From: Anaerolineales bacterium
Lineage (GTDB): Bacteria > Chloroflexota > Anaerolineae > Anaerolineales > UBA11858
Direction: 5' to 3'
Length of the DNA stretch: 64,000 bases
Assembly (NCBI GenBank): GCA_049644685.1
Contig: JBARSJ010000131.1
Coordinates: 307-64,306 of the forward strand
In this document: positions 1,787 to 50,281 of the stretch, piece by piece
How positions within the stretch are numbered: position 1 is the stretch's first letter
Layout: each line of letters opens with the position of its first letter
Notes under the pieces: model-generated
The model's database searches: none
What the model saw: only the letters and a program-made list of their open reading frames with translations
Told to the model about the DNA's origin: nothing
Program-made: the position numbers and the translations under genes

Positions 1787-3628
1787 TCACTCCACAGTAA
1801 CAGATTTTGCCAGGTTGCGGGGCTGATCGACATCCAAACCGCGTTGAGCAGCGATATGATAAGCCAACAACTGCAGCGGGATCACCGTGGTAACCGGGGA
1901 TAACATCCAGGGGGTTTCAGGCACACTTAAAACAAGATCTGCCTGCCCCTGGATCTGTTCATCACCTTCCGTAGCAACCGCTATTACCCGCCCACCCCGG
2001 GCTTTAACCTGCTCGATCTGGCTAAACATTTTTTCGTACCAGGGATCACGGGGAGCAATTACCACAACCGGCAGATCTGCATCAATCAAGGCAATCGGTC
2101 CATGTTTCATTTCTCCAGCAGGATATCCTTCGGCATGGATATAAGATATCTCTTTCAGTTTCAGGGCGCCTTCATAAGCAGTGGGCATGTTCACGCCCCT
2201 TCCGAGATACAGCGCACTTTGCGCTTCCAGCAAGCTTTCAGCGACCCTCTTTACCTCTCCTTCCTGATCAAGGCAACGTCCCGCAAGGTCCGGAACCAAT
2301 CGCAAATCATCCACCAGCTGACGGCGTTGGCTTTCATCAATCGTACCTCGCAGTTCTCCCAGAAGAATTGCCAGCATATACAAATCCACCAACGGCGCAG
2401 TATAAGCTTTAGTGGAGGCAACCCCAATTTCGGGTCCGACCTGCATGGAAATAAATCCATCTGCAATCCGCATCGCCTGGGATCCAATCGCATTTACAAT
2501 TGACCACAAGGTGGCTCCTTTTCGGCGTCCTTCTTCCATTGCCGCTAAAGTGTCGGCAGTTTCCCCGGATTGACTAATTGCCAAAACAACAGTATTCTCA
2601 TCAACTATCGGATCCTGATAGCGGAACTCAGATCCAATTTCCACTTCCACCGGAATGCGGGCAATCCTTTCTATCAGCACTTTACCCACCATTCCTGCAT
2701 AGGATGCCGTTCCACAGGCGATAATAAAGATTTTCTTGATTTCTTTCACTTTCGCAGGGGAAATATTTAAACTCGGTATTTGAATAGAGCCCAATTCAAA
2801 ATCAACTCTTCCCGCAATGGTATCCGTCAATGAGCGAACCTGTTCATGGATCTCTTTGTGCATAAAATGGCGGTATTCGCCTTTTTCTGCCGAAACCGGA
2901 TCCCAGGGAATATTATGTACCTCCGGCTGGATCTCTTCCCCATCCAGGGTCATTACCACCAAACCCTCGCGGCTGACCACGGCCATTTGGCGGGACTCAA
3001 GGAAAACCATTTCCCGGGTATGTTCCAGGATAGCAGGCAAATCTGATGCGATGTACATCTCATCCTTTCCATAACCAATCACAACCCCGCCGGCGTTACC
3101 AATTCTGGCGGCGATGATTTTATCCGGCTCGTTTTTGCTTAACACAACAATGCCGTGAGCGCCTTTTAAGAGAAGCAGGGCTTGATGGACAGCATCTGTA
3201 AGACTACTTCCGCCGGATAGATAACGCTCGATCAGGTGGACTATCACTTCCGAATCTGTTTCTGATTGAAAAACAATCCCTTCGCTTTCCAACTCATCCC
3301 GAAGTGCGGAAAAATTTTCCACGATCCCATTATGAACCAGGACCACGTCGCCTGTCATCCCCAAATGAGGATGTGCGTTGCGGGTATTTGGCACACCATG
3401 AGTTGCCCAGCGGGTGTGTCCAATCCCAATGTTGCCCTTTAAGGGTGATTCATTAACCAGTTGACTCAATCTTTCCAATTTGCCGGCATCCCGCCTGATT
3501 TCGATACCCCCGTTCTCAAGAACTGCAATACCGGCTGAGTCGTACCCCCGGTATTCAAGCTTTTTTAGCCCATTCATAATGATGGGCGTGGCGTTTTGGG
3601 GTCCAATATAGCCTACTATTCCACACAT
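1787..3628 (-). CDS. glmS: Glutamine--fructose-6-phosphate aminotransferase (isomerizing)
   Basis: 613 aa. N-terminal MCGIVGY (catalytic Cys2), two SIS domains, C-terminal ...LAKSVTVE. Confidence 0.95.
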   Translation of the reverse strand: MCGIVGYIGPQNATPIIMNGLKKLEYRGYDSAGIAVLENGGIEIRRDAGKLERLSQLVNESPLKGNIGIGHTRWATHGVPNTRNAHPHLGMTGDVVLVHNGIVENFSALRDELESEGIVFQSETDSEVIVHLIERYLSGGSSLTDAVHQALLLLKGAHGIVVLSKNEPDKIIAARIGNAGGVVIGYGKDEMYIASDLPAILEHTREMVFLESRQMAVVSREGLVVMTLDGEEIQPEVHNIPWDPVSAEKGEYRHFMHKEIHEQVRSLTDTIAGRVDFELGSIQIPSLNISPAKVKEIKKIFIIACGTASYAGMVGKVLIERIARIPVEVEIGSEFRYQDPIVDENTVVLAISQSGETADTLAAMEEGRRKGATLWSIVNAIGSQAMRIADGFISMQVGPEIGVASTKAYTAPLVDLYMLAILLGELRGTIDESQRRQLVDDLRLVPDLAGRCLDQEGEVKRVAESLLEAQSALYLGRGVNMPTAYEGALKLKEISYIHAEGYPAGEMKHGPIALIDADLPVVVIAPRDPWYEKMFSQIEQVKARGGRVIAVATEGDEQIQGQADLVLSVPETPWMLSPVTTVIPLQLLAYHIAAQRGLDVDQPRNLAKSVTVE

Positions 3629-3809
3629 GGGTTTACCCTCCCTGAATCAGTTCAGCCATATTTGATCCATACCTGCTGCAGCAAAATCCACAAGAATTTT
3701 GCCCAAATATCCAGGCCAGACCTGCAAGCTGAGTTTAGGTTGGAGTCACCAGGGATGATTTTGTCCCACCGGTCGCCCGGGGATTTGTCATCCATTTAAG
3801 TTAGGAGGG

Positions 3810-3997
3810 AAAAATCGGAGAGTGACAATCTCCGGAGGGCTTCCGCTGATAGTTCGATTTTCCTGACCCAATTGCCCCCGGTCAGTTAGCCTCCATAAAA
3901 GGAGGAACCCTCATCCTCGTCAACTCAAGAACCTGCCTTTTGTCAAATTTATCCGTTTATCTATCCAAATGACAATAAATCTTGAGCCCTTGCGCTA
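3810..3997 (-). ncRNA. Probable glmS ribozyme (GlcN6P-responsive self-cleaving leader)
   Basis: On the minus strand upstream of glmS: AGCGC (the cleavage-site motif A^GCGC, complement of 3992-3996), then a long hairpin closed by CTCAAG...CTTGAG. This is followed by GUUGACGAGGAUGAGGG, matching the conserved GACGAGGA core as I remember it, then CCUCC/GGAGG, CUGACC/GGGUCAG and CGGAGA/UCUCCG hairpins. Boundaries are approximate. Confidence 0.65.
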
Positions 3998-4123
3998 TTT
4001 TCCCAATTTGACCTTTTCCAGTCACCTCCTTCCTCTAAATTATCCGCGAAGGAATATAAGATATTAAGTATTCCCTCGCGGTTGTTATCTTACTCGAAGA
4101 ACCAATTTCCTGCAACCATTCCC

Positions 4124-6849: not shown

Positions 6850-7647
6850 ATGATAATTTCAAAACGAATTATTCCCCGCTGCCTTATCGCTCTGGTCATC
6901 CTGATCATGGTGCTTTTGGGCTGTCGTTCAACGGTATCTGACCAACAAGCAGGAGGAGACCAGCCGCAATCTCAATCGACTCAAACTTCCTCGCCTGATC
7001 TCAATCTATCCCAGGATCCAACCATTGAAGATCGAGAAAACATGGTCCTCAGGCAAATCGAAGCCCGGGGTGTGGAGGACACAAAGGTTTTAGCAGCCAT
7101 GAAATCCGTTCCACGCCATGAATTTGTGCCTGACCGCTATCTCTCACAGGCTTATGCTGATCATCCCCTACCAATCGGTTATGGACAAACGATCTCCCAA
7201 CCCTACATTGTCGCCTTGATGACCGAGGCTCTCCAGCTGGAAGAAGGGGATCGGGTATTAGAAATAGGGACAGGCAGCGGCTACCAGGCGGCTGTCCTGG
7301 CCGAGTTGGTAACCCAGGTTTTCAGCATAGAAATCATTCCGGAATTAGCAGCAGAAGCAAAAGAACTGCTGAAAGAACTCGGTTATTCAAATATCGAGGT
7401 CCTGAATGCAGATGGGTATTTCGGCTGGGAAGAATATGCGCCTTTTGATGCGATAATCGTCACTGCTGCCCCAGATCATCTTCCACTGCTGCTTCAGGTG
7501 CAGATGGCTGAAGGCGGTCGTTTAGTGATCCCGATCGGTCCAATCGGCGCTGTTCAAACTCTCTGGCTGTTTGAAAAACTCGAGGGGGAATTGATCGCGT
7601 CCAACCTTGGTGCTGTCACTTTTGTCCCTTTTACCGGAGAACATTAA
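6850..7647 (+). CDS. pcm: Protein-L-isoaspartate O-methyltransferase with N-terminal lipoprotein-type signal
   Basis: Motifs GQTISQPYIVA.M.E.L, VLEIGTGSGYQAAVLA and GGRLV.PIG. N-terminus is ...LIALVILIMVLLGC (lipobox-like LLGC). The ATG at 6850 has GGAG 6 nt upstream; alternative starts are at 6838 and 6844. Confidence 0.85.
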   Translation: MIISKRIIPRCLIALVILIMVLLGCRSTVSDQQAGGDQPQSQSTQTSSPDLNLSQDPTIEDRENMVLRQIEARGVEDTKVLAAMKSVPRHEFVPDRYLSQAYADHPLPIGYGQTISQPYIVALMTEALQLEEGDRVLEIGTGSGYQAAVLAELVTQVFSIEIIPELAAEAKELLKELGYSNIEVLNADGYFGWEEYAPFDAIIVTAAPDHLPLLLQVQMAEGGRLVIPIGPIGAVQTLWLFEKLEGELIASNLGAVTFVPFTGEH

Positions 7648-10070
7648 TCCAATTGGATTCTGAGGATCATCCAGGCGCCGAGATAAGCACACCCGCCCAG
7701 GATCAATACCAGTGGATAACCAGCTTGAAGGGATAGAATTGCAGTAGCTACCGATGCAATAACCGAAGCGCTCCCATTGATTGCCCAGGCCCAAGGAACC
7801 ATGGCAGGGATCTCATTTTTTATCCAGGAAATCCCCTTGGGAAAAAACAAACCCATACAGAAACCCAGCGGAGACAATCCCAAACAGGCTGCCAGGCAGC
7901 GGATCCACAGCGGCCAGCCTAGTACCATTTCCTTATTTAATGTACAAACAGCCACAAATCCTCCTCCGAGAAGAAGGAGCTGGAGATAAATCAAGGTCTG
8001 ATGCCGCCAGGTATTTTTGGCAGCCATACTTCCCAAACCTGAGGAGAGCAGCAGGATCCCTACAACGGCTGTAAAGGCAGCAATTGGAGTGCTTAAAAAC
8101 AAAGTCCATTGACTGATCAGGGGGATCTCTATGAACATAAAACCGATACCAATTAAACCAAAATAAAGGAGTATCTTAGCTTTTCCTGGAAAACCTTTCC
8201 CAATCCAGCTCTTCCTGTTTAATACCAAAGGAAGAAGGATCATCAGGCTGCTGAGAAGTAGAACCAAAGCCAATAAAAAAATCAGCAGGAAGTATCCACT
8301 TCCGCCGAACGGCTGCCAGGTTTTCCCTAGCGTGTCCAAGATTTGAGGAGTCTGGCTCCAGGTAAAAAAGTGAAAGAAGAAGGGATGATTGTCGGATGGT
8401 GGGGAAATGTTAAATAGATAGGAGGTATAAAACTCCCTCTGGTTTGTTGATTGGAATAAACTCTTGACCGCTTGATGATAAATTGGTTCCGGCATCCTGT
8501 TCCATTGATTAAGTTCATTCATCTGGATGTCCGGAGCCCAAACCAGATCAAAACGGCAGCGCTCCAAAAATGACCGCAGGGAGTTTAATTCAGTTTTGCT
8601 CCATCCGTCTGGTTTAACCAGAACCGTCATGGTTTGGATGCTGCGGTAAATCACAAAATTATCCGGGGGATTCTGAATTCCAAGGTCCTTCTGGGATTCA
8701 AGCAGAGTGCTGACCAATCGCAGTCCTTCACTGGGAGGATTTTGAAGCCACCTGCTGCTCACATACACCCCCCCTGGAGCTAAGCTTCCCAAAGCGTTTT
8801 TAATCCCTTCCTCAGTCAACAAGTAATTCTCAGATAGACTGTATACCCCATTTGAGACCGGTTGGTAAGGGTCAGTTAGCGGCAAAAAGACAACATGATA
8901 GATTTTATTTGTCTGTTGAAGAAACGCCCGGTGGTTCCCGATAAAAACCTGCACCCGGGGGTGTTCAAAAACATGGTATCCGGGTGATGACTTTTGAACA
9001 CCTTCCAGCAGCAGTCGATTCTCGACCACAGTAGAAATCGATTCGGCTCCGCCCGCTAAAGCCTGTAAAATTCCTAATCCGGCACCGGGATCCAGAACAA
9101 GGACATCCGGATTAGATTGCATTGAAAATGCCCAATATTCCGGCATCCATTCTCCAGCTGTAAAATCGGCTGGCTCTGTTAACGTGATTGGCTGAAGAGC
9201 ACCCCCATCAATGGATAAACCATTTTGAGAAGGCAGTTCGCTGCTGTAAACATAGCTTAATCCCGGAAATCTCCGGGTTCCAGCATCCGCCAGCACATCT
9301 ACCCGGGAAACTGCATCCCATTTAGCAAACAAAGTCGTCGCACCTGGAAATCTGCGGGCATAAGCAAGTTCCTTGTAGGGGGAAATGACTATACCCAAAG
9401 GTGATCTTCCTTGAAAGTTTAAGGCTGAGATACCAATCCACACCGTAAGACAGACGATCAAGAATAAGCTGTATTTTATTCGGTATTTTTGAGATTTTGT
9501 TAAAGCGGTTTTCACTAAAAAAGAGCATCCGGCGCCGAATATTCCACAACAAAGCAGTACTCCTAAAATGCCGGAAAAAGCCAATACTACAGGAGCGAGG
9601 ATTACTCCCAACCCGGATCCAATCAGGTTTGCGGCATAGACCAGGTTGTGTTTTTCGTCAATGACCGCTAAAATTGTACCGAGTCCTAATCCGCTTACCA
9701 GGAAAGGAAGGGAGAGAGAAAAATAATAGAGGATAAAAAAGAGTATCTGCCGGCGTTCCCAGGCAATGCTGTAAGAATCAAAGGGAAGCCAATTGACAAT
9801 CAAAAAAGCTACCCAGACACTGATCACAAACCCAATACCTACTCTTGATAGTGTTTTCTCTAAAGGAATCTCTTTGATTTTTGGGAAAACTGAGATCAGA
9901 GTACCGCTGGCACCAAAGCCGAGTAAAGCCAGACTGACCACCAGGAAAGCGAAATGGTAAAATTGCGCGATCGCCAGAAACCGGATAAGAGCAGTTTCAA
10001 ACAATAAAGTCGCCGACGACAAAAGACCGATCGCAACCACAATCCGGGAAAACTGATTTCCTGCTTTCAT
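7644..10070 (-). CDS. Polytopic membrane protein with embedded spermidine-synthase-like (class I methyltransferase fold) domain
   Basis: 808 aa. Many predicted TM helices at both ends. The central region has VLVLDPGAGLGILQAL (Rossmann GxGxG-like). Confidence 0.6.
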   Translation of the reverse strand: MKAGNQFSRIVVAIGLLSSATLLFETALIRFLAIAQFYHFAFLVVSLALLGFGASGTLISVFPKIKEIPLEKTLSRVGIGFVISVWVAFLIVNWLPFDSYSIAWERRQILFFILYYFSLSLPFLVSGLGLGTILAVIDEKHNLVYAANLIGSGLGVILAPVVLAFSGILGVLLCCGIFGAGCSFLVKTALTKSQKYRIKYSLFLIVCLTVWIGISALNFQGRSPLGIVISPYKELAYARRFPGATTLFAKWDAVSRVDVLADAGTRRFPGLSYVYSSELPSQNGLSIDGGALQPITLTEPADFTAGEWMPEYWAFSMQSNPDVLVLDPGAGLGILQALAGGAESISTVVENRLLLEGVQKSSPGYHVFEHPRVQVFIGNHRAFLQQTNKIYHVVFLPLTDPYQPVSNGVYSLSENYLLTEEGIKNALGSLAPGGVYVSSRWLQNPPSEGLRLVSTLLESQKDLGIQNPPDNFVIYRSIQTMTVLVKPDGWSKTELNSLRSFLERCRFDLVWAPDIQMNELNQWNRMPEPIYHQAVKSLFQSTNQREFYTSYLFNISPPSDNHPFFFHFFTWSQTPQILDTLGKTWQPFGGSGYFLLIFLLALVLLLSSLMILLPLVLNRKSWIGKGFPGKAKILLYFGLIGIGFMFIEIPLISQWTLFLSTPIAAFTAVVGILLLSSGLGSMAAKNTWRHQTLIYLQLLLLGGGFVAVCTLNKEMVLGWPLWIRCLAACLGLSPLGFCMGLFFPKGISWIKNEIPAMVPWAWAINGSASVIASVATAILSLQAGYPLVLILGGCAYLGAWMILRIQLD

Positions 10071-10355
10071 GTCAAGTCCACTGGTTATCTGCGGGTAGAG
10101 TTGCCTGGTCTAAAATTATAACGAAGTAATTCTCGAGGATTTCTCTCCTGCCAAATGGCCCTTTGGATTAAATAATAGACCAGTGACACCTATCTGTAAA
10201 TGCCTTCTGCGGATTTGGTGATGATAGCGGAGGACAAACTATTCAGAGTTTATCTGCCGCTACTGCGCATACTTAATAATCAGGAATCTTTGCCTGCGGA
10301 TCCCTGGCAAACTGTGATAGTAATCAATATTATTGATAATGTACGGCATTCGTGA

Positions 10356-10364
10356 TGCTATACT
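10356..10364 (+). promoter_or_regulatory. Extended -10 box TGCTATACT; candidate promoter reading into cassette array A
   Basis: The same 9-mer family (TGCTATAMT) lies upstream of tRNA-Val, ftsK and the tail-tube-like gene. The identical TGCTATACT recurs at 47647, at a similar distance from the other short attC. Confidence 0.4.
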
Positions 10365-10404
10365 AAAATTGAATCGGGCAACAAAATGGCTGCTATTTAG
10401 GGCA

Positions 10405-10456
10405 AGATAATGCATTATTCTATTATCGCGCAAGTGAAACATAATTAACGTTAGAT
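10405..10456 (+). other. Short attC-like site (A0) at the left boundary of array A
   Basis: 30/32 nt identical to the short site at 47718-47749 (ATTATCrCGCArGTGAAACATAATTAACGTTA). It ends in GTTAGAT (10450-10456). The 5' box is degenerate (GATAATG instead of CATAACG). Confidence 0.45.
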
Positions 10457-10502
10457 GGCACTTCTCTTTCGGTGGCAGCCATCTGGATGAAAGGATGCAT
10501 TT

Positions 10503-11060
10503 GTGGATATTGGAAGAGAGTATGATTCGGCAATCGAGATAATCCGTGAGTACTATGATGGACCAATACGGCCTTATATGACTGTCGAGTTCGGAAGAAG
10601 AAAGAAACAAGGAGCGATTTCATTAATTATTAGCTACTCCAGAGAAATGAACCCCAGAAAGCTGGTTGATATTCTCCAGGATAAACTCCCGGATCAATAC
10701 ATTGCATTCCTTGGAAATGATAAATGGCTCGGTGAAGAAAAGAATAATTACCCTGAGATCGTTATTGCAATAGCATCTTCTCAATTCGAAGCAATAAGAC
10801 TTGCGGAGTCGAGAGGCGTAAACCAAGACGTTTCGACGGAAGAAGTGATAGATAAGCTCAAGGAATATGACAGGAAGTATAGAATCAGGATCTTAAGAGC
10901 CACTATAGAGGCAGTATCATTCAGATTGAAAACTCTATCTGAAGACATGAACGCCCATCTTGATGATCAAGCGGAAACTCTGAAACTCAATACGTATCCG
11001 AGAGAAGAGATCATTTCAGAAATTTCGAAAAAATTGATTGATGGGTTTTGGTGGGACTAG
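10503..11060 (+). CDS. Hypothetical protein (cassette A1); the C-terminal ...GFWWD resembles DUF4253, unverified
   Basis: 185-aa ORF with a GTG start. It is the only long ORF between the cassette boundaries 10451 and 11178. Confidence 0.5.
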   Translation: MDIGREYDSAIEIIREYYDGPIRPYMTVEFGRRKKQGAISLIISYSREMNPRKLVDILQDKLPDQYIAFLGNDKWLGEEKNNYPEIVIAIASSQFEAIRLAESRGVNQDVSTEEVIDKLKEYDRKYRIRILRATIEAVSFRLKTLSEDMNAHLDDQAETLKLNTYPREEIISEISKKLIDGFWWD

Positions 11061-11089
11061 TTACGTTTCATATTATCCAGAATGTGTGA

Positions 11090-11184
11090 GTGCCATCTAA
11101 CAAATCGCTGAAGCGGACGCCTATAGCAGCGGCAAATCCATATCTCGGTCATAGCCGGCGCCGCTTAGCTCAAAGCCGTTAGGC
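11090..11184 (+). other. attC site A1
   Basis: GTGCCATCTAA (11090-11100) is the exact reverse complement of the cassette start TTAGATGGCAC (10451-10461). The 5' arm GCT(G)AAGCGG(A)CGCC pairs with GGCGCCGCTTAGC, leaving two extrahelical bases. It ends in GTTAGGC (11178-11184). Confidence 0.75.
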
Positions 11185-11212
11185 GGCAAGCTTTATTTAG
11201 AGGAGGTTTCAT

Positions 11213-11755
11213 ATGAGTTTGCATATTAGTTTGGTGTCAATTCAGGGGAACCATCTTTCTGAGATAGCTGGTGTTCTTGAAGATTGCGAATATATAGTAG
11301 AAGATTCCTTTACAGTAAAATCTGGAGATCAGGTATCAGAAGAACTTGGGTGGAATCCGGATAGAAACAGAGTCGCAAAAGCTGCTTATTTTGCACATGG
11401 GTGGACTTATATCATTGACCCTGAACTTGTCCTTTTAATAAATGATGTCTGGTTGAAATATTCCCGCAAATGGAATAATCGCATCTTTGGCTGGATTTGT
11501 GAAGGTGTGTCTGGCACGTATGGGATCACCGTCTTTGATTCAGGGAATAAACGTCGTGTAGTAGTCAGTGTTGATGGCGAAGTCGTTACTGATGAAGGCA
11601 AACCACTTAAGGAAGAAACTGATCTCGATTGGAACGATGTCTGGGAAACAGATATACTTGGGTTAGCGAAACGAATCGGTGCAGTTTATGACTTTCCTGC
11701 CGATCGTGATTACCAAATTATTCACCTCGACGAATCCCAAATGTCGGCGCCTTAA
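11213..11755 (+). CDS. Hypothetical protein (cassette A2)
   Basis: 180 aa. Strong RBS AGAGGAGG 6 nt upstream of the ATG. Confidence 0.65.
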   Translation: MSLHISLVSIQGNHLSEIAGVLEDCEYIVEDSFTVKSGDQVSEELGWNPDRNRVAKAAYFAHGWTYIIDPELVLLINDVWLKYSRKWNNRIFGWICEGVSGTYGITVFDSGNKRRVVVSVDGEVVTDEGKPLKEETDLDWNDVWETDILGLAKRIGAVYDFPADRDYQIIHLDESQMSAP

Positions 11756-11773
11756 TGACATACCCACAAAACG

Positions 11774-11833
11774 CAGCATAACCTCCGCTCCAGCGAACGC
11801 TGGGGAGCGCGCCGCTGAGCTCATCCGTTAGGA
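11774..11833 (+). other. attC site A2
   Basis: GCATAAC (11776-11782) ... GCTGAGCTCATCC-GTTAGGA (11827-11833). The arms GCTC(C)AGCG / CGCTGAGC pair with an unpaired base. Confidence 0.7.
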
Positions 11834-11865
11834 ATTGAAAGGTAATTCTAATTTCATAAGGAAAT

Positions 11866-12129
11866 ATGGTTGAGTCTAAAGAATCAAACAAGCAGTGGGC
11901 AGAGTATATTGAACTGATAAGAAAGTATTTCATGTTCCTCTTTGAGGAGTATAACTACGAGATGTCTCATATACAAAAATATGGTGCATTTCACAATGCG
12001 TTTTACATAATCGGACTCAGTGCTAAGGGGCTTCCTAGGCTTCAATTCTTAGGAGAGATTGCACCAGGAATCATGATTGGTTTGCCTGACGCACCATTCG
12101 GAGAAGATAAAGAAATAAATGGACATTAA
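11866..12129 (+). CDS. Hypothetical small protein (first ORF of cassette A3)
   Basis: 87 aa with AAGGAAAT before the ATG. No attC separates it from the next ORF. Confidence 0.45.
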   Translation: MVESKESNKQWAEYIELIRKYFMFLFEEYNYEMSHIQKYGAFHNAFYIIGLSAKGLPRLQFLGEIAPGIMIGLPDAPFGEDKEINGH

Positions 12130-12184
12130 TGTTGGTGGGGATTAGATCAGATAATGGATTACTTATTAAAGGAAGGAGGTATAG

Positions 12185-13285
12185 GTGGTGTTTCCAGATA
12201 TCCTGAATTATTTGATTCTCAAAAAGCACAAATTTGCCATAGTTTTTAGTTTATTTATGGCAGCAGGTACCGCCATTCTTTTGGTAAATCTTTGGCAGGA
12301 TTATAAAATAACCCCTTCTCGCCCAAAACCAATAAGTCCGGAAATGCTTCAGCCAGGCATAGCCTTTCTCCAGTTCAATCAGTGGGTCGAAATTGATATA
12401 ACAGGCCTTCAATGCCAAGAAATGAATTCCCAATCATCAGAAAGAGAAAAGTTTATTAACGGGATTATTGACTTCTTAATGGGCGGTGAAGCACTGCGGG
12501 AACATGTAATACTTTCTAATGAGGCAGAAACCCTTGTGCTGGTGGCAATGTTCTCTAAGGAAGTGACGTGCAGAGAAGTCAGGGATAATTCACCGCTGAG
12601 AGGAGTGATCAGCAGACAGACATTTGAGAGATATAGCAGATTAACAGAAATTGACCCAGTCCTTGCTGAATACGCTTACGACGGATATATTTATAATTTT
12701 TGTGCGTTTTGTGGGAGAGACAATACTCTAATCGGTCTGATCGTTTGCGCAGTGTTATTTATCATCAGTATTGGTTTGTTAATTATAAGTATTTACTTAA
12801 TGAAAGAAAAATCACAAGAAAAGAAAATTGACATTGAAAGCCTTCTGAATCAAACCGAGGACAATTCTTTGCTTATTCAACTTGGTCAACACCTATTCAA
12901 TAAGTACTATAAAAATGGTTTTGATAATCTAACCAAACCTGAGCAGATCATTTTTATGATTGACCAACTAGAGATGGAAATTAATAATGGTGGTTTTGCG
13001 CAGTATTATGGCAACTCTGGTTCCGACTATGCTCAAGATGTCCCTTTTGCTCTGGAATCAATTGGCGCTTCTTACACAGCTGATCTGGTAAGAAAAGGAA
13101 ACTCTTTGTTTCCAAATGGTCTTCCTCCAAAGATATGGCCTGATCGACAGGTTCTTCTTGATAACATTATTAATGATATTCATGACCAACTTGATGAGCT
13201 AGATAATTTATTTTATGAGTATAAAGATCCTTTGGGTAAACTCCAAAGAGAGTATATTCATAAGTACAAAGAACATTTTTCTTAA
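12185..13285 (+). CDS. Membrane-associated protein with C-terminal DMP19/DUF4375-like domain (second ORF of cassette A3)
   Basis: 366 aa. TM segments near residues 15-35 and 180-205. The C-terminal motif LT.PEQ....I..LE.EINNGGFAQYYGNSG resembles the DMP19 family. Confidence 0.6.
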   Translation: MVFPDILNYLILKKHKFAIVFSLFMAAGTAILLVNLWQDYKITPSRPKPISPEMLQPGIAFLQFNQWVEIDITGLQCQEMNSQSSEREKFINGIIDFLMGGEALREHVILSNEAETLVLVAMFSKEVTCREVRDNSPLRGVISRQTFERYSRLTEIDPVLAEYAYDGYIYNFCAFCGRDNTLIGLIVCAVLFIISIGLLIISIYLMKEKSQEKKIDIESLLNQTEDNSLLIQLGQHLFNKYYKNGFDNLTKPEQIIFMIDQLEMEINNGGFAQYYGNSGSDYAQDVPFALESIGASYTADLVRKGNSLFPNGLPPKIWPDRQVLLDNIINDIHDQLDELDNLFYEYKDPLGKLQREYIHKYKEHFS

Positions 13286-13297
13286 ATACATTGAATG

Positions 13298-13380
13298 TGC
13301 TTCCTAACCCCCACTGCACCCGACACTATCGCCTGCGCGCTTCGCGCTCCGCTCAGTGCGAGTGAGCTCATCCGTTAGGT
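13298..13380 (+). other. attC site A3
   Basis: TTCCTAA (13301-13307) is the reverse complement of the cassette start TTAGGAA (11828-11834). The 3' end is GAGTGAGCTCATCC-GTTAGGT (13374-13380). The arms CACT-GCAC / GTGCGAGTG pair with an unpaired base. Confidence 0.8.
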
Positions 13381-13425
13381 GCCTGAAAGATTTGATTAGC
13401 GACAATATTCAAGGAGCGTTTAGAA

Positions 13426-14289
13426 ATGCTTCCCAAACAACTTTTTGGACGCACCGGACATACAAGCTCTCAGATCATATTCGGCGCATATGCTCTCAGC
13501 AATGCAACCCAAGCAAATGCCGCTGGCATTCTTGAATTATTGCTGGAATATGGAATAAACCATATTGACACAGCGCCTATGTACGGAAATTCCGAGAATT
13601 GCATTGGATCATGGATGAAGCAACATCGTGATGATTTCTTCATCGCAACCAAGTCACGAAGCCGCACGTACGAAGGAGCATGGAAAAATCTTCGGCGATC
13701 ATTGGATCAATTGAGAGTTGACTATGTGGATCTCTGGCAAATGCATGGTTTGACTAACCCGGCAGGTTGGGAAAAAGCGATGGGTTCAGGAGGAGCTTTA
13801 GAAGCTTTCATTGAAGCGCGCGACAAAGGCTTAGTCCGATTCCTGGGTGTGACAGGCCACGGCAGCAAGGTGCCAGCTATGCATAAAAGAAGCCTAGAGA
13901 ATTTTGATTTTGATACAGTCTTGCTTCCATACAGTTATTGGCAAATGCAGAATCCCCGTTATGCAGATGCTTTCAATGAATTAATTGGATTGTGCCGTAA
14001 GCGCAAAGTAGCAGTACAGATCATCAAATCTATTGCCCGCCGACCATGGGAGAACCGTCCAAAAACGCACAATACTCATTTCTATGAACCATTAGACACT
14101 CCTGATGCTATTGAAAAGTCGATGCATTGGTCAATGGGTTTGCCAGAAAGCTTCCTGATTACGGCGGGAGATATGGGGATTCTTCCTAAAATGTTAGCTG
14201 CTGCATCTCGCTATCAGAAGCGACCATCTGCTGCAGAAATGAAGGCCATTATGGATGAGTTTGATATTCAACCGATATTTTCGTATTGA
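13426..14289 (+). CDS. Aldo/keto reductase family oxidoreductase (cassette A4)
   Basis: 287 aa. Motifs G.N.IDTA..YG.SE. .G, FIATK, and VDL.Q.H. Confidence 0.8.
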   Translation: MLPKQLFGRTGHTSSQIIFGAYALSNATQANAAGILELLLEYGINHIDTAPMYGNSENCIGSWMKQHRDDFFIATKSRSRTYEGAWKNLRRSLDQLRVDYVDLWQMHGLTNPAGWEKAMGSGGALEAFIEARDKGLVRFLGVTGHGSKVPAMHKRSLENFDFDTVLLPYSYWQMQNPRYADAFNELIGLCRKRKVAVQIIKSIARRPWENRPKTHNTHFYEPLDTPDAIEKSMHWSMGLPESFLITAGDMGILPKMLAAASRYQKRPSAAEMKAIMDEFDIQPIFSY

Positions 14290-14299
14290 TCTGAAGAAA

Positions 14300-14616
14300 A
14301 TGCACCTGACCGCCTGCAGAGTGACAAGGAGACTTTTGGGACAGAGAGACAGGGTGAGCAGTAAAAACAAAGTTACTGATTACTGAACACTGATTACTGA
14401 ATACTGGAACCCGGCACCAGGTGCCCTTTACCCGAAGTATAGGCCTGTCCAGCCTGCCCTGAGTTTATCGAAGGGAACGAAGCAAAGCGATGTTAAAGGG
14501 CTTCGCAACCCTTCGTCTCCCCCCTCGGTGGAATTTATACAAAGCGAAGCGAAGTGCTCGGGGTTCGCTCAGGACAAATGCCCTAAAGGATGCTTCGCTA
14601 AGCTCATCCATTATGT
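14300..14616 (+). other. Atypical, expanded attC-like region A4 (about 317 bp)
   Basis: GCACCTGA (14302-14309) matches the reverse complement of the cassette start TTAGGTGC at 7/8 positions. The 3' end GCTAAGCTCATCC-ATTATGT (14610-16) is a degenerate copy of the family end. The interior is filled by heptad repeats (14373-14407) and CGAAG-type palindromes. Confidence 0.4.
14373..14407. repeat. Heptanucleotide tandem repeat (YACTGAW) x5
   Basis: TTACTGA TTACTGA ACACTGA TTACTGA ATACTGG. Confidence 0.85.
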
Positions 14617-14657
14617 GGAAGCAAATCACTGCCCGTTATATTTACTGATAAAAGAGA

Positions 14658-15551
14658 TTGACCATGGAGAATATTCAGGAAAAGACCTTCAATACAGGCG
14701 AGGTAACAATCAACTACGCTGAGGTGCCGTCATCTGGTCCCCCACTCATGCTGCTTCACGGTGGGGGTGATCGCTGGCAATCATTTTTACCTATCATTCC
14801 ACCTTTAGCGAAGAGGTGTCACATCTATGCTTTAGATTTGCGCGGGCATGGTAAATCTGGACGCTTACCAGGCAAGTATCGTCCTGAGCACTATGTGTCA
14901 GACATTGTCGCCTTTCTTGAAAGTCAAGTTGCAGGGAATGCGATTCTTTTTGGTCATTCATTGGGAGGTTGGATTGCTTTACTGGTCGCGATGGAAATGA
15001 AAGAGAAGGTAAGTGGTGTCATACTTGGAGATCCGCCACTGAACATGGAACGCTTTCTTGCGTACGAGGGCAGTGTGGAGAGAATCAAATTGTGGCATTC
15101 ATTCCGGGCTCTAGCAATTTCAGACTTATCTATTCCAGAGTTTGAAATTGAGCTTTCTAACGTGCCAGTATCGTTGCCAGGACAAGATAAACCGATACGG
15201 TTTGGCGATCTGCCAGGAGTAGATGAAACCTATCTCAAACAGATGGCTGAGACAACAAGCCTCATGGACCCAGATGTAATCCAGTATCATGCTGAAGGAT
15301 GCCTGGATGAGTATGTTAATCAAGTAGACCTGGAAATGATTTTGAAAAGCATTACTTGTCCAACCTTATTAATTCAGGCAGATCCAATGTGTGGAGGAGT
15401 CGTCTCGGACGATGATGTAAAACGCACCTTATCTTTGTTATCATGTGGGCATCATGTGCAATTGAATGGGGCAGGTCACGACTTGGGTTTCAGCAAAAAG
15501 AAGGTAAATACTCTTATAAGTATGGTAACAAGTTACCTCGAGTCTTTGTGA
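14658..15551 (+). CDS. Alpha/beta-fold hydrolase (cassette A5)
   Basis: 297 aa. Motifs LLHGGGD, nucleophile elbow GHSLGG, and C-terminal GAGHD. Confidence 0.8.
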   Translation: MTMENIQEKTFNTGEVTINYAEVPSSGPPLMLLHGGGDRWQSFLPIIPPLAKRCHIYALDLRGHGKSGRLPGKYRPEHYVSDIVAFLESQVAGNAILFGHSLGGWIALLVAMEMKEKVSGVILGDPPLNMERFLAYEGSVERIKLWHSFRALAISDLSIPEFEIELSNVPVSLPGQDKPIRFGDLPGVDETYLKQMAETTSLMDPDVIQYHAEGCLDEYVNQVDLEMILKSITCPTLLIQADPMCGGVVSDDDVKRTLSLLSCGHHVQLNGAGHDLGFSKKKVNTLISMVTSYLESL

Positions 15552-15681
15552 AATGGTTGCAACTTTCATTTGAATTTGTCACCTAACCCCCTCTGCCTTT
15601 AGTACGACCTTAGGTCTCAGGACAGGGTACCTGACCACCTAAAGACTGACTGGGAGACTGGGTGAGGGGGGGACCGGGTGA

Positions 15682-15702
15682 ATACTGATCACTGATTACT
15701 GG
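15682..15702. repeat. Heptanucleotide tandem repeat x3
   Basis: ATACTGA TCACTGA TTACTGG, preceded by GACTGGGAGACTGGG words. Homologous to the 14373 locus, including the downstream TACTGGAAmCC...CCAGGTrCCCTT. Confidence 0.8.
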
Positions 15703-15776
15703 AAACCGTTGCCAGGTACCCTTCGCAAACATAGAACAAATGGGTACTACTGTCAGGCAGTCGGAAAGGATTAAAT

Positions 15777-16028
15777 ATGGAAATAATCAAAGAATCCCTA
15801 ATGAAATGGGGGGAAGCAATGCATTTGAGCATGGAGAATCGCACTATGTTTTACTCTCCAGTTCTCGACCATTGGCGGGTAAAGAAGTGGGCAGGTAAAA
15901 GGGGAAAAAGTTTTATCTATGATGGATCAGATTTTACGCTGGCGTTTGAATATTTGCTTGGCACTCATGCCGCCGAACACCCCCTACCCCCACCCGGCGG
16001 GAATGACGTATCTGATGCCACCGGCTGA
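15777..16028 (+). CDS. Doubtful small ORF (83 aa) at the end of array A
   Basis: It has an ATG, but its last 55-60 nt run through the attC-like site. The Pro/Gly-rich tail looks like translated repeat sequence. Confidence 0.3.
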   Translation: MEIIKESLMKWGEAMHLSMENRTMFYSPVLDHWRVKKWAGKRGKSFIYDGSDFTLAFEYLLGTHAAEHPLPPPGGNDVSDATG

Positions 16029-16046
16029 TGAGCTAATCCACCAGGC
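15970..16046 (+). other. Degenerate terminal attC-like site (A6)
   Basis: GCCGAAC-ACCCC-...CACCCGGC... is homologous to the 5' half of the family. The 3' end GATGAGCTAATCC-ACCAGGC is a decayed copy of GAGCTCATCC-GTTAGGC. Confidence 0.45.
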
Positions 16047-16225: not shown

Positions 16226-16699
16226 ATGTTTAAAGCTGGAATCATCATCGGATTGGTAGCATTGTTGTTTGCGGTTGGAGTAGCATTGCTAAGTCCGTTA
16301 TGTGTGCCCTGTCTTACGCTGCTATTAGGTCTGGGAGCGGGTTTCTTGGCAGGCGTGTTTGAGCAACCGGAGGAAGGAAATGAAACATTGAAAACTGGCG
16401 CCATAGCTGGTGTCATCGCTGGTATTGGGATGGCGTTAGGCCAGGCAATTGGAGCCGTAATCAATTCCATAATAGTGGGTCCAGAAGGCGCAGCACAATT
16501 ACTAGAGAATTTTGGGTTTCAGACAGGCGGACAGTCTGCGATTGGATCAAGTTATTGGATAGGAATAATTGGGGGTACTGTCTGCTTTGGTTTGGTGGAC
16601 ATTGCTTTGATGGCTGGTTTTGGAGTATTAGGCGCTTTGGCCTGGGGCAAGTTTCTAAGGAAAAACAACGGATCTTCCGCAGAAGTGGTAATGGAATAA
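16226..16699 (+). CDS. Glycine-rich integral membrane protein, function unknown
   Basis: 157 aa with 4-5 hydrophobic Gly/Ala-rich segments. RBS AAAGGAG 8 nt upstream. Confidence 0.6.
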   Translation: MFKAGIIIGLVALLFAVGVALLSPLCVPCLTLLLGLGAGFLAGVFEQPEEGNETLKTGAIAGVIAGIGMALGQAIGAVINSIIVGPEGAAQLLENFGFQTGGQSAIGSSYWIGIIGGTVCFGLVDIALMAGFGVLGALAWGKFLRKNNGSSAEVVME

Positions 16700-16741
16700 T
16701 TGTGCCGCCCAACTCCAGATGAATCCGACTCGCACTCGGTT

Positions 16742-18511
16742 TTAACTCAATGTCTGGGGATTGATTTCCAGCTGAATTTTGTTCAACCGCTTGTACAATC
16801 CATCCCTGGTCATTAATTCTTCGTGGGGGCCAGATTCGACTATCCGGCTGCCATCCAAAACCACGATAAGATCTGCGCTTCGAATCGTAGACAGGCGGTG
16901 GGCAATCACAATGACCGTTTTTCCCACCATTAACTGCTCCAGGGCTTGTTGGATCAACAACTCGGTTTCGGTATCTACTGAGGAGGTGGCTTCATCAAGG
17001 ATTAAGATCGGGGCATCTTTAAGGACTGCCCTGGCAATCGCTATCCGCTGCTTTTGACCCCCGGACAGCTTTACCCCCCGCTCCCCAATCATTGTGTCAT
17101 ATCCATCAGGCAAATGGGTGATAAATTCATGGGCGTTTGCAATTCTGGCAGCGTTAATCATTTCTTCTTTGGTTGCGCCCTGGCGGCCAAATATAATATT
17201 CTCACCTGCTGTGCCATGAAACAGGAAGACATCCTGCAGTACCATACTGATCTGCTGGCGAACACTCTGAATGGTCAGGTTTCGAATGTCAAAGCCGTCT
17301 AAGGCAATGGATCCTTCACTTACGTCATAGAACCTGGGGATCAGGTTTGCCAAAGTGGTCTTGCCAACTCCCGTGGGTCCCACTAAGGCAACAACCATAC
17401 CCGGGTGGATATTCAGGTTGATATCCTCCAAGACAGTATCGCCGACGGAATAGCGGAAACTCACATCTTTGAGCACAATAGCTCCAGCTGCTCTTCCCTC
17501 CAATTCAACTGCATCTGGTTTTTCAATAATATCAGGAGCTTCGTCCAGAACTTCTGCTACCCGCTCTGCACCTGCCAGTGCTTGTTGAACACTTTCCCAG
17601 ACACCGCTCAAAGCGCGCACCGGCTGGTAAAGCAATTCCAAATAGAGGAAAAAAGCCACCAGTCCACCAATTGCCAAAGTTTCCCCCAAAACAAAGCGAC
17701 CGCCAAAATAAATCAACACAACTGTGCCCAATGAAGTTGCAAACTCAACAACAGGGTGAAAGGTTGCCATCAAGCGCAGCGCTCGCAAGGTAGAATCCCG
17801 GTAACCGGCAATATGTTTGCCGACCTGGCTCAATTCGTTTTCCTCACGGGTAAAAGCCTTGATTTCTCGCACACCAGAAAGATTGTCGTTAAGCGCAGCA
17901 TTAAGCTCTCCCAATATCGATTGCCTGGCGCGAAACGCTGGTCGCACGTATTTGGTGAACCCCTGCATCGCCAACACAATCATAGGAACCGGGATCATAC
18001 TCAACAAAGTGAGTTTCCAATTCATACTTGCTAAAACAGCAATGACACCCACCAGCATAAGTGAATTTGCAATCACATCCGGCACAGCATGGGCAATCAA
18101 ATGCTCAATCAAATCCGCATCGTTCACCACCCGGGACATCAATTGTCCGGTTTGTTTGTCTTCATAAAAACGAAGCGATAAGCGCTGCAAATGTTGATAG
18201 ACCATCGATCTCACATCTGCAACCACATTCCACCCTGCAACGTGAGCCAAATAACTACGGACAAATTGTAAAACAGCCCTGGCAGCATAGAGTATCAACG
18301 CCAATAACGCCAATTGGGTTATCCGGCTCAAATCATCCTGACCCCCGGCGGAATCTGTAGCAATTTCTATCATTGATTTAACCAGCCAGGGAGCATACAG
18401 CTGAACTCCAACCAACAGCAGCATGCTCAAGATGGTTAAACTTAACACGCCAGCGTATTTATGCGTGAATTGGAAAACAAACCTGAGTGATTTCAATCCT
18501 GATGCCTCCAT
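16742..18511 (-). CDS. ABC transporter, fused permease/ATP-binding protein (MsbA/exporter type)
   Basis: 589 aa. N-terminal 6-TM domain, Walker A GPTGVGKTT, signature LSGGQKQR, Walker B ILILDEATS. Confidence 0.9.
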   Translation of the reverse strand: MEASGLKSLRFVFQFTHKYAGVLSLTILSMLLLVGVQLYAPWLVKSMIEIATDSAGGQDDLSRITQLALLALILYAARAVLQFVRSYLAHVAGWNVVADVRSMVYQHLQRLSLRFYEDKQTGQLMSRVVNDADLIEHLIAHAVPDVIANSLMLVGVIAVLASMNWKLTLLSMIPVPMIVLAMQGFTKYVRPAFRARQSILGELNAALNDNLSGVREIKAFTREENELSQVGKHIAGYRDSTLRALRLMATFHPVVEFATSLGTVVLIYFGGRFVLGETLAIGGLVAFFLYLELLYQPVRALSGVWESVQQALAGAERVAEVLDEAPDIIEKPDAVELEGRAAGAIVLKDVSFRYSVGDTVLEDINLNIHPGMVVALVGPTGVGKTTLANLIPRFYDVSEGSIALDGFDIRNLTIQSVRQQISMVLQDVFLFHGTAGENIIFGRQGATKEEMINAARIANAHEFITHLPDGYDTMIGERGVKLSGGQKQRIAIARAVLKDAPILILDEATSSVDTETELLIQQALEQLMVGKTVIVIAHRLSTIRSADLIVVLDGSRIVESGPHEELMTRDGLYKRLNKIQLEINPQTLS

Positions 18512-24174: not shown

Positions 24175-24302
24175 GACTTGAGTGTAGCACGGGGTGAGTT
24201 AATGGTCAACGTTCCGGAAGGCAGGTAATGGTTATGTAATGGCGACACCTGTCCTGCGACCAAAGGAAGTGACGAAGGGCGGTGGGTCGCCCTTTCTAGA
24301 GA

Positions 24303-24354
24303 GACCTCCGAGGTCCTTTGGACCTCGGAGGTTGTTATTACCTCGGGGGTTGTT
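24303..24354. repeat. ACCTCCGAGGT palindromic repeat element (copy 2, opposite orientation to copy 1)
   Basis: GACCTCCGAGGTCC-ttt-GGACCTCGGAGGTTGTTATTACCTCGGGGGTTGTT. Its reverse complement aligns almost base for base with 1721-1770. Confidence 0.75.
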
Positions 24355-41528: not shown

Positions 41529-41602
<74 letters not shown>

Positions 41603-41720
41603 CTGTCTTGGTCCCATCTCGAACCTCATAGTGAGGAAGTAGAGCAATTCCTGGCAATGCTCAGATTTGAGCAGAAAAGCGAGGTAAAAAGGCTCTCAGA
41701 ATTCCTCAAATGAGGTAGAG

Positions 41721-41960
41721 ATGGGTTCTTCATTTAAAGGCACAAATCCTGATGTAACAGAAGATTACATTACCGTAAAAACTGCATCCAAATTCAGTGG
41801 TTACAACGAACAATACCTTCGAAGGTTATTAAGGGGGGGAATTTTCAAGACCAGAAAGATTGGACAACTCTGGTTGATTGAACAAGCTGATTTTGGAAAA
41901 TACTTTTCTGAAGCTACAAAATCAGATGATAAGCGATTTGGCCCCCAATCAAGTACGTAA
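41721..41960 (+). CDS. Small helix-turn-helix DNA-binding protein (excisionase/MerR-like HTH)
   Basis: 79 aa. The segment ITVKTASKFSGYNEQYLRRLLRGG....RKIG..WLI....F..Y resembles HTH_17/excisionase-family proteins. GAGG RBS upstream. Confidence 0.5.
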   Translation: MGSSFKGTNPDVTEDYITVKTASKFSGYNEQYLRRLLRGGIFKTRKIGQLWLIEQADFGKYFSEATKSDDKRFGPQSST

Positions 41961-41971
41961 CATAATTGTTA

Positions 41972-41977
41972 TATAAT
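41972..41977 (+). promoter_or_regulatory. Candidate -10 box (TGTTATATAAT context) upstream of cassette array B
   Basis: TATAAT with a TG two nt upstream. It lies between the HTH gene and the direct repeats. No convincing -35 box. Confidence 0.3.
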
Positions 41978-41988
41978 ACAGATAAGCA

Positions 41989-42057
41989 GATATCAGTCCA
42001 AATGGACCGATTATTACCGATATCCGGTCCAAATGGACCAATATCTATAGGTTAGCT
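41989..42057 (+). other. attI-like junction: two direct repeats followed by the first GTTAGCT crossover box
   Basis: GATATCAGTCCAAATGGACC (41989-42008) and GATATCCGGTCCAAATGGACC (42019-42039). Each contains the inverted repeat GTCCA-aa-TGGAC. A third, partial AATATC follows, then GTTAGCT at 42051-42057. Confidence 0.45.
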
Positions 42058-45926: not shown

Positions 45927-46037
45927 AAGGTACAATTCAGACAATTATTAAGAAAAATGTATTCGAAAAGTGGTTCGTGATCTGTCCACTAACGTCCACT
46001 AGAATCGCTTGACGAATCCGGCGGGCGATTATTTTTC
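45927..46037 (+). ncRNA. Repeated noncoding module R1: -10-like box, conserved 29-nt motif, terminator hairpin (candidate small transcript)
   Basis: TACAAT (45931-36). Motif GGTTCGTGATCTGTCCACTAACGTCCACT (45972-46000). Hairpin AATCGC/GCGATT followed by ATTTTT (46003-46036). Confidence 0.35.
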
Positions 46038-47485: not shown

Positions 47486-47546
47486 AAGGTCCTAACCCGC
47501 GCTGTAGCAAAAGCTAGGATCGCGCTACTGAGCTCATCTGTTAGAT
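47486..47546 (+). other. attC site B4
   Basis: TCCTAAC (47490-96) ... CTGAGCTCATCT-GTTAGAT (47540-46). It carries the family signature at both ends. Confidence 0.7.
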
Positions 47547-47567
47547 CGCTCAAGATAATTAAATTCT

Positions 47568-47630
47568 AAGGTTATAATTAGGAAAAATCTATTAGAAAAG
47601 CGGTTCGTGATCTGTCCACCAATGCCCACA
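47568..47630 (+). ncRNA. Repeated noncoding module R2 (inside ORF-less cassette B5)
   Basis: GGTTATAAT (-10 at 47573-78), then GGTTCGTGATCTGTCCACCAATGCCCAC (47602-29). Confidence 0.35.
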
Positions 47631-47646
47631 AACAAAATAACCCTCA

Positions 47647-47655
47647 TGCTATACT
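47647..47655 (+). promoter_or_regulatory. Extended -10 box TGCTATACT inside ORF-less cassette B5, reading through the short attC into cassette B6
   Basis: Identical 9-mer to 10356-10364. The distance to the GTTA crossover is 90 nt, against 85 nt at array A. Confidence 0.4.
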
Positions 47656-47701
47656 TCTTGCAGAGGGGATAACATCTTTGGATGTTACCTTCCACGTCGA
47701 T

Positions 47702-47752
47702 ACATAACGCCTAAATGATTATCACGCAGGTGAAACATAATTAACGTTATGT
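47702..47752 (+). other. Short attC-like site B5 (51 nt class)
   Basis: ACATAACG / CGTTATGT form an 8-bp outer stem, followed by an internal loop. The inner stem is ATTAT-CAC / GTG-(aaac)-ATAAT. 30/32 nt are identical to 10422-10453. Confidence 0.5.
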
Positions 47753-49347: not shown

Positions 49348-49447
49348 AGGGTTATAATTCAGGAGAATATTATATAAAGCCGGTTCGAGATCTGTCCACT
49401 AACGTCCACTCAATTACCGCTATTCTAAGAGGGTAGCGGTTTTCTTG
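49348..49447 (+). ncRNA. Repeated noncoding module R3: -10-like box, conserved motif, terminator
   Basis: GGTTATAAT (-10 at 49353-58). Motif GGTTCGAGATCTGTCCACTAACGTCCACT (49382-49410). Hairpin ACCGCTA/TAGCGGT followed by TTTCTT. Confidence 0.4.
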
Positions 49448-50177: not shown

Positions 50178-50193
50178 CTTCCGATAGAAAGTC

Positions 50194-50281
50194 AGTTCGA
50201 GATCTCCAACACCCTCGTGTTGGAGTCGCAGGATGGGGAAATTGACCTTCCCCTTCCCGCTGATGTCCACCAACGTCCACT
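50194..50281 (+). repeat. Module R4: the conserved motif split by a 58-nt insertion, at the right end of array B
   Basis: AGTTCGAGATCT (50194-205), then a 58-nt insert with hairpins CCAACAC/GTGTTGG and GGGGAA/TTCCCC, then TGTCCACCAACGTCCACT (50264-81). No promoter box is present. Confidence 0.5.

Follow-up and report, generated by a model that had tools for sequence, protein, structure and literature searches.

The gene cassettes of integrons are mobilized through attC sites, whose bottom strand forms a hairpin in which the R and L boxes pair and two bases stay extrahelical. The integron integrase binds this hairpin and cuts the R' box between G and TT; a cassette is excised as a circle when two attC sites recombine, and inserted when its attC recombines with attI or a secondary site. 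Sedentary chromosomal integrons comprise tens of cassettes with highly similar attC sites and a chromosomal integrase gene (intI) alongside. Cassette arrays without an integrase gene (CALIN) are defined by two or more attC sites that share a strand and are spaced by less than 4 kb, with no integron integrase; secondary-site insertion, loss of intI and rearrangement are their possible origins (Cury et al. 2016, PMC4889954). As many as 83% of CALIN have fewer than six sites, and integrons have already been reported in Chloroflexi (Cury et al. 2016, PMC4889954; IntegronFinder 2, PMC9024848). In the attG route (SALIN), mostly single cassettes are inserted at genomic secondary sites, which are non-att sites (Loot et al., bioRxiv 10.1101/2022.09.11.507474). 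The locus analyzed here, array A, occupies positions 10356-16046 of a 64-kb stretch of the chromosome of an uncultured Anaerolineales bacterium (Chloroflexota); this stretch is referred to as the window, and positions are given in it unless a contig is named.

Array A is very probably an integron cassette array without an integrase gene, composed of an attI/promoter-type head, three intact cassettes and a set of decayed modules. Its intact sites A1-A3 (Table 1) follow one another on the + strand at distances of 681 and 1526 nt, and no intI is present in the window, which corresponds to the CALIN definition. By homology to a complete integron on metagenome contig L172, the head is of the attI/promoter type, but a complete integron would also carry intI. 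With three intact and two or three degraded sites, at least two attC subtypes and no intI, the array does not resemble a sedentary chromosomal integron either. The kind of element is already known, and array A overturns no current models; to the integrons of Chloroflexota, known but little described, it adds a well-documented integrase-less array from Anaerolineales, for which the identity, structure and family of the attC sites, their link to integrases on other contigs, cassette-precise mobility, the lack of intI in the window and the insertion relative to other genomes are shown. Its head of attI type and the turnover of cassettes at strain level are of added interest.

A second array of the same attC family and orientation, array B, is located at 42-50 kb. 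Searches by tblastn with IntI1 and three environmental IntI proteins gave no E below 0.1 in the 64 kb and none below 4.2 in the vicinity of the two arrays, in line with the first-pass annotation of this DNA, which had described both arrays as lacking an integrase. Pfam scans of the neighbouring open reading frames (ORFs) detected no integrase.

Recombination sites and their family

Sites A1-A3 combine the properties expected of attC: inverted core boxes, an L stem with extrahelical bases, recognition by two covariance models (R1 and R2) and complementarity between cassette starts and R'' boxes. They are the only intact canonical attC sites of array A, although A2 and A3 each deviate at one position from the strict R''/R' consensus (RYYYAAC ... 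GTTRRRY). The R'' of cassette 2, which the first-pass annotation did not give, is GCATAAC at 11776. Together with B1, B3, B4 and B6 of array B, the three sites form a seven-site alignment with almost no ambiguity. Each site runs from R'' (nnnTAAC) over 4-5 nt of spacer to L'', and from there through a loop of variable length to L', a second spacer and R' (GTTAGnn). Neither TAAC nor GTT varies in this alignment or in 144 further sites of the family. The sites of the two arrays fall into at least two subtypes, with the spacer TCATCC, found in most sites, or TCAAAGCC; the 13-mer GCTCATCCGTTAG is repeated without mismatch on the + strand (11819, 13366 and 42853), and TAACCCCC has only three occurrences in the window (13305, 15584, and 42791).

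The pairing pattern is conserved along with the boxes. Two unpaired bases on the R''/L'' side, 6 nt apart, occupy alignment columns 16 and 23 in 7/7 sites. The stem proposed earlier for A1, GCT(G)AAGCGG(A)CGCC against GGCGCCGCTTAGC with two bulged bases, is borne out, and the minimum-free-energy folds of the bottom strands of A1 and A3 contain the same two bulges. In the 18-pair structure of the seven sites, 91% of the cells hold standard pairs, compared with 25-41% when the partners are slid; compensatory change is seen at 7 pairs, six of them among the 12 L-box pairs, and 0/500 shuffles reach the observed values. The 144 distinct metagenome sites show 93% pairing, ten compensatory pairs and strong covariation.

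R1 was built from the seven window sites only, and R2 from 150 sites of metagenome contigs only. In the 64 kb, R1 returned exactly its seven sites, all on the + strand and at 56-70 bits (A1 63.6, A2 63.5, A3 67.7), the next match having E = 3; R2 scored A1, A2 and A3 at 43.8, 67.6 and 58.0 bits. The first-pass annotation had named a lack of hits with an attC model as an outcome that would refute the array; both models match A1-A3. According to R1 and R2, attC sites occur only in the two arrays, on one strand; an Rfam scan of the window gave a tRNA and a glmS ribozyme only, with no attC family match. Since one alignment and one model cover the sites of both arrays, in the same orientation, the earlier assignment of the two arrays to a single attC family holds. 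R1 also recovers the 60-nt aadA1 attC of R100/Tn21 (50.1 bits, E = 3.5e-11), with its location and strand correct.

The cassette boundaries are reflected by the complementarity between the two ends of each cassette. The start of cassette 1, GTTAGATGGCAC (10450), has its exact reverse complement GTGCCATCTAAC at 11090 as the sole occurrence in the window, with a 12/12 match to the R''. This mirror had been reported, as had TTAGGAA (11828) with TTCCTAA (13301), and TTAGGTGC (13375) with GCACCTGA (14302; 7/8 positions); all three pairs were reproduced, and every quoted string was found at or within a base of the position reported for it. For ten cassettes from both arrays, the first bases of each cassette were compared with its own R'' at 7 non-conserved positions. 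Own pairs gave 41, versus 27.1 +/- 4.2 for permuted pairings (p = 0.0013), so that the proposed complementarity exceeds chance; the four array-A pairs alone gave p = 0.0002. Complementarity of this kind constitutes the trace of the circular form of a cassette.

Metagenomes are rich in this family. The motif TAACC-N28-58-TGAGCTCATCCGTTAG identified at least 120 metagenome contigs that carry it, and in the first 80 of these R1 found 199 sites, in co-oriented arrays (12 sites in L098, 11 in L103). Full-length integrase genes are present in L098, L114, L172, and L166. In the first three contigs the gene is 47-51% identical to IntI1 and divergent from the array; the L098 and L114 integrases match TIGR02249 at 463 and 446 bits (cut-off 265). 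An integrase gene co-oriented with the attC sites, not divergent, occurs in L166 (3117-4221 and 5100-7832) and L115. Scans of viral contigs gave no match for the attC motif or for the head junction described below. The family is near enough to the clinical aadA1 attC for a window-built model to find it. This likeness accords with a view from the integron literature, in which the recombination sites used by mobile integrons are similar to those of environmental cassette pools.

Past A3, the modules of array A, two or three in number, are older, and their attC sites are decayed or disrupted. The site of module 4 is split into an R'' (GCACCTGAC, 14302-14310) and an L'-R' half (AAGCTCATCCATTATGT, 14592-14616), with about 260 nt of repeat-rich DNA in between; the 3' half has a weight-matrix score of 16.3, above 19/20 whole-window shuffle maxima. 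Behind module 5, an R'' relic at 15581 (CACCTAACCCCC) precedes a copy of a repeat and an R' relic (GTCAGGC, 15752-15758), and R2 gives a weak match at 15581-15615 (9.4 bits, E = 6.5). Module 6 is the weakest part of the array: its relic at 16022-16046 (GAGCTAATCCACCAGGC) scores 12.4, within the whole-window shuffle range. A repeat of roughly 190 nt, which includes runs of heptamers, is common to the sites after the reductase and hydrolase genes. An intact attC after either gene was considered and rejected, as only half-sites with model scores of 9.4 bits or less are found there. The rightward series GAGCTCATCCGTTAG (11817, 13364), AAGCTCATCCATTAT (14600) and GAGCTAATCCACCAG (16030), described in the first-pass annotation as a decay of sites, is present; its count of 5-6 modules missed the non-coding head and ranked the degraded right-hand part equal to the intact sites. 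Tandem heptamers (about CTGAWTA) are found in intergenic DNA at 14377-14418, 15679-15720, 51976-52010, 54186-54227, 55720-55770, and 57240-57275; the first two runs fall within the degraded attC regions of array A.

Head module, cassette exchange and insertion

The head module has the consensus TGCTATACT ... TTATCnCGCAnnTGAAAsATAATTAAC followed by GTTAG, and the predicted crossover lies between G10450 and T10451. The 32-nt repeat before cassette 1 (10422-10453) recurs at 47718. In L172, the module is located between the intI start codon and the first cassette, with about 25 nt from TGCTATACT to the start codon; because of this placement, the head of array A is read as the attI/promoter region of an L172-type integron. 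An attC at the left boundary of the array, 10405-10456, was considered and rejected, as the segment does not fold (z = +1.0) and is matched by neither R1 nor R2; it was re-read as attI-type once its counterpart beside intI in L172 was known. Further copies of the module occur at 47647-47752 of the window and in L117, L148, L186, and L003, the DNA differing directly after GTTAG each time; at 47541-47752 of the window and in L117, the module directly follows a canonical attC inside an array. An attI-type head on an intI-less array, with copies inside other arrays, offers a lead on array origin and transcription. The invariant extended -10-like TGCTATACT makes the head a candidate promoter; the co-oriented ORFs appear to lack promoters of their own, and their transcription would probably begin in the head module. 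Locus L003 (1-230, minus strand of the locus; flanking protein 92% identical) contains an attI-like junction followed by different DNA, in which a tyrosine-recombinase-like protein (MTALRERMIEDLQLHGFAEKTQEAYLRAVRQLAAHCKK) starts in cassette direction; the contig ends there.

The head also bears on the origin of the array, which might be the remnant of a complete integron at the same place, with intI lost by deletion and the attI/promoter head left behind. Such an origin is conceivable but doubtful. The loss of intI is among the CALIN origins named by Cury et al. 2016 (PMC4889954), and in L172 this type of head lies directly beside intI; however, no integrase remnant was detected between the head and the flanking 808-aa gene, even with close environmental IntI queries. 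The gap between them is only about 285 nt, mostly conserved intergenic DNA common to the close relatives L002 and L003. Moreover, because the copies at 47541-47752 and in L117 sit inside arrays after a canonical attC, the module could travel like a non-coding cassette, without intI. It is seen adjoining intI (L172), within arrays and, in array A, heading an intI-less array in a core intergenic region; a tentative idea would be that the attI/promoter region itself is a mobile cassette-like module in this environmental integron family. If true, a mobile attI module could seed integrase-independent landing pads around the chromosome with their own promoter, served by one integrase in trans, and would represent a platform multiplication route of integrons outside the CALIN concept.

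The contents of array A, regarded as an integrase-less cassette array, differ between strains in a cassette-wise manner. Cassette 2 (11177-11832) corresponds to L149 2841-2186 with 98.9% identity over 656 nt, and unrelated DNA begins on both sides of it, from the two predicted G/TT points. L209 is 99.7% identical to 9771-13379 and carries, just past the A3 crossover, a different unit with another ORF, i.e., another fourth cassette. L204 is 99.8% identical on both sides of a 98-nt segment that replaces 14315-15762, and it therefore lacks the hydrolase module. Its site after the reductase is compact (105 nt) with the intact end AAGCTCATCCG/TTAGACC, and the module 6 unit has there an intact start, G/TTAGACC, followed by a ribosome-binding site and ATG. 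In the complete integron of L098, a 53%-identical reductase forms a cassette between two attC sites. These comparisons are sequence evidence for the exchange of cassettes in nature between strains and between arrays, and they indicate that the cassettes of array A are still swapped between closely related strains. The boundaries in L149 and L209, together with the co-occurrence of the family with TIGR02249 integrases, are indirect indications that A1-A3 may be recombined as folded single strands by an integron integrase. As array A encodes none, its cassettes would be movable only by an integrase acting in trans, whether encoded at another place in the genome or brought in by an incoming element.

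An array that is now fixed and inert, its strain differences having arisen by homologous recombination between related chromosomes and not through an integrase in this lineage, is unlikely. The window indeed contains no integrase, and the L204 difference, which runs from inside the degraded attC to 11 nt past the next crossover, fits homologous exchange better. On the other hand, the unrelated DNA on both sides of cassette 2 in L149 starts exactly at the crossovers, and the divergence of L209 begins at most 5 nt from the A3 crossover, both of which are typical of site-specific exchange.

The position of array A is best understood from the gene order of its relatives. In 8 related Anaerolineales genomes, mfd, an S1-domain gene, the 808-aa gene and a methyltransferase gene follow each other in uninterrupted order, and the window carries 8.4 kb extra where these relatives have only about 350-430 nt. 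Since the flanking genes are adjacent in relatives, array A appears to be an insertion into the ancestral intergenic region between the S1-domain and 808-aa genes, not a piece of array B; the lower GC content of the cassettes (0.38-0.46) compared with the flanks (0.47-0.48) was counted as further support. L002 and L003 depart both from the window and from one another, starting at about the head module, where their contigs break. In L006 and L007, the 4.9 kb at the corresponding place hold no cassettes but a conserved operon of three genes, encoded on the opposite strand. How the array first entered the chromosome belongs to the inferred part of this account.

The same gene order makes it highly improbable that a single ancestral array was split into A and B by a rearrangement that put 26 kb of core genes between them, one of two explanations suggested in the first-pass annotation. 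Such a split would agree with the common attC family, the orientation and the head-type modules at 10356 and 47647. However, the genes flanking array A are immediate neighbours in the 8 array-less relatives, so the core block beside it was not moved in. In addition, array B has a head of its own, homologous to the intI-proximal region of L114; because the heads are of different attI types, the two arrays are regarded as separate platforms. The other explanation proposed at the time, the repeated action of an integrase encoded elsewhere, is favoured over a split array: it fits the strain-level cassette differences, but the integrase itself was not found.

Several observations weigh against the interpretation of array A as an inserted, exchangeable cassette array. 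The folding energies of A1-A3 are not clearly better than those of shuffles (z = -0.4 to -1.7), and it is covariation and the models that carry the structural case, rather than stability. An intact attC is lacking in the right-hand modules, and part of the apparent R'' lies inside the repeat common to both regions, the supposed R'' at 14302 having a counterpart at 15627 in the repeat copy; as L204 keeps a compact version of the site, this R'' is taken to be real but decayed. The L209 junction reads G/GTAGG, not G/TTAGG, and a clean excision by an integrase (G/TT) was rejected for L204, about 11 nt past the expected crossover being different as well. A sigma-70 promoter and terminator scan of the array region gave the same counts as shuffled sequence. 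Finally, an R1 scan of 80 syntenic Anaerolineales loci (1.2 Mb) detected no attC; hence no relative was seen with an array at the same site plus an integrase.

The explanation of the repeats as other intergenic palindromes (repetitive extragenic palindromic, REP-like, elements or terminators) would draw on the marginal fold energies, the overlap of A1 with a terminator-like pattern and the other dispersed repeats in the genome, but it is judged already refuted: R1 recognizes the aadA1 attC, the family adjoins integron integrases in metagenome contigs, the sites are confined to two arrays and one strand, and the similarity boundaries are cassette-precise.

Features of the array and its surroundings

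The region from 10.4 to 16.0 kb contains 7 ORFs, 7/7 of them on the + strand. They encode a DUF4253 protein, a 180-aa protein without a family, an 87-aa protein, a DMP19 membrane protein, an aldo/keto reductase, an alpha/beta hydrolase and an 83-aa protein (Table 1); the first-pass annotation had named the same four families, DUF4253 with a question mark. An exact-protein look-up of the module 5 hydrolase returned no record.

Table 1. Coordinates of array A, its recombination sites and the adjacent genes
Feature	Position	Strand	Description
Left flank, 808-aa conserved membrane protein gene	7644-10070	-	weak spermidine-synthase-like match
Head module (~100 nt, non-coding)	10356-10456	+	extended -10-like TGCTATACT at 10356-10364; attI-like end ATAATTAAC, then GTTAGAT
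Cassette 1 (728 nt)	10451-11178	+	ORF 10503-11060, 185-aa DUF4253 protein (Pfam E = 7e-7); attC A1
attC A1	11095-11184	+	R''/R' = ATCTAAC/GTTAGGC
Cassette 2 (649 nt)	11179-11827	+	ORF 11213-11755, 180 aa, no family match; attC A2
attC A2 (58 nt)	11776-11833	+	R''/R' = GCATAAC/GTTAGGA
Cassette 3 (1547 nt)	11828-13374	+	two ORFs; attC A3
Cassette 3, first ORF	11866-12129	+	87 aa
Cassette 3, second ORF	12185-13285	+	366 aa, DMP19 and membrane segments (Pfam E = 2e-24)
attC A3	13302-13380	+	R''/R' = TCCTAAC/GTTAGGT
Module 4	13375-14610	+	ORF 13426-14289, aldo/keto reductase (Pfam Aldo_ket_red); attC degraded, split
Module 5	14611-15752	+	ORF 14658-15551, alpha/beta hydrolase (Pfam Abhydrolase_6/1); degraded site after
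Module 6	15753-16046	+	ORF 15777-16028, 83 aa, no family match; terminal L'-R' relic
Right flank, 157-aa glycine-rich membrane protein gene	16226-16699	+	inside the 8.4 kb of extra DNA
Right flank, ABC transporter gene	16742-18511	-	inside the 8.4 kb of extra DNA

Orthologues of the 808-aa gene occur in 80 Anaerolineales loci, where the S1-domain gene directly adjoins it; the protein is 92-93% identical in two Anaerolineales/Chloroflexota bins and 40-74% identical in dozens more. The genes for the glycine-rich protein and the ABC transporter are both missing from the corresponding position in relatives, and neither R1 nor R2 finds an attC in this right flank (16226-18511). In L009, the ABC transporter orthologue (63% identity) lies beyond the methyltransferase gene, on its opposite side, a placement that points to a local rearrangement.

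The head of array B (41965-42051; upstream 41529-41960) contains ATAATTGTTATATAATACAGATAAGCAG and two GTCCAAATGGACC repeats, then G/TTAGCTGG. Homologous sequence adjoins intI in L114 and is also present in L116 and L087; in the window, the place where intI would be is occupied by a tRNA-Val gene and a small helix-turn-helix-like ORF. Array B also contains a 56-nt repeat (45944-46035, 47574-47640, and 49354-49445, with a split copy at 50184-50282), which is preceded by the -10-like GGTTATAATT, includes the tRNA T-arm-like GGTTCGWGATCTGTCCACTAACGTCCAC and is followed by a hairpin and a T-run. From these elements, the repeat looks like a small RNA unit; similar units precede the attI-like modules of L116, L117, and L148. 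Just to the right of array B, the ORF at 52200-52634 (+) encodes a T4 gp19-like tail-tube domain.

Elsewhere in the window, the palindrome ACCTCCGAGGT forms clusters with short spacers in three intergenic regions (1706-1774, 24286-24354, and 57278-57320). The glmS ribozyme (3741-4007, -) is located upstream of a 613-aa ORF (1787-3628, -).

Comparison with described integrons

Like other CALIN, array A is small, and its cargo is mostly of no assigned function, without resistance genes. It is unlike them in keeping an attI/promoter-type head, which lies outside the CALIN definition, and in its location 26 kb from a second intI-less array with a different head type. It resembles the products of the attG route (SALIN) as a case of cassettes landing outside an integron platform, in an otherwise conserved chromosomal region; in contrast to these, it has an attI-like head, and its original chromosomal junction is not identified.

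The aadA1 attC (the 59-base element of the class 1 integron In2, Tn21/R100) shares with the sites described here the succession of R'', a 5-nt spacer, L'' with two bulges 6 nt apart, L', a spacer and R' GTTAG. A1 reads ATCTAAC-AAATC-GCTGAAGCGGACGCC...GGCGCCGCTTAGC-TCAAAGCC-GTTAGGC, and aadA1 reads GTCTAAC-AATTC-GTTCAAGCCGACGCC...GGCGCGGCTTAAC-TCAAGC-GTTAGAT. The differences concern the central loops, which are longer here (58-90 nt sites versus 60 nt), and the spacer, which is TCATCC in most of the present sites. The first bulged base of the bottom strand is C in A1 and A3, whereas it is G in aadA1 and B1. The aadA1 system also differs in host phylum and cargo.

The complete integrons of L098, L114, and L172 carry a TIGR02249 integrase divergent from the array, unlike the integrase-less window. 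With array A they have in common the attC family, the head module (L172) and a homologous cassette (the reductase, L098), and L149 shares cassette 2 with it.

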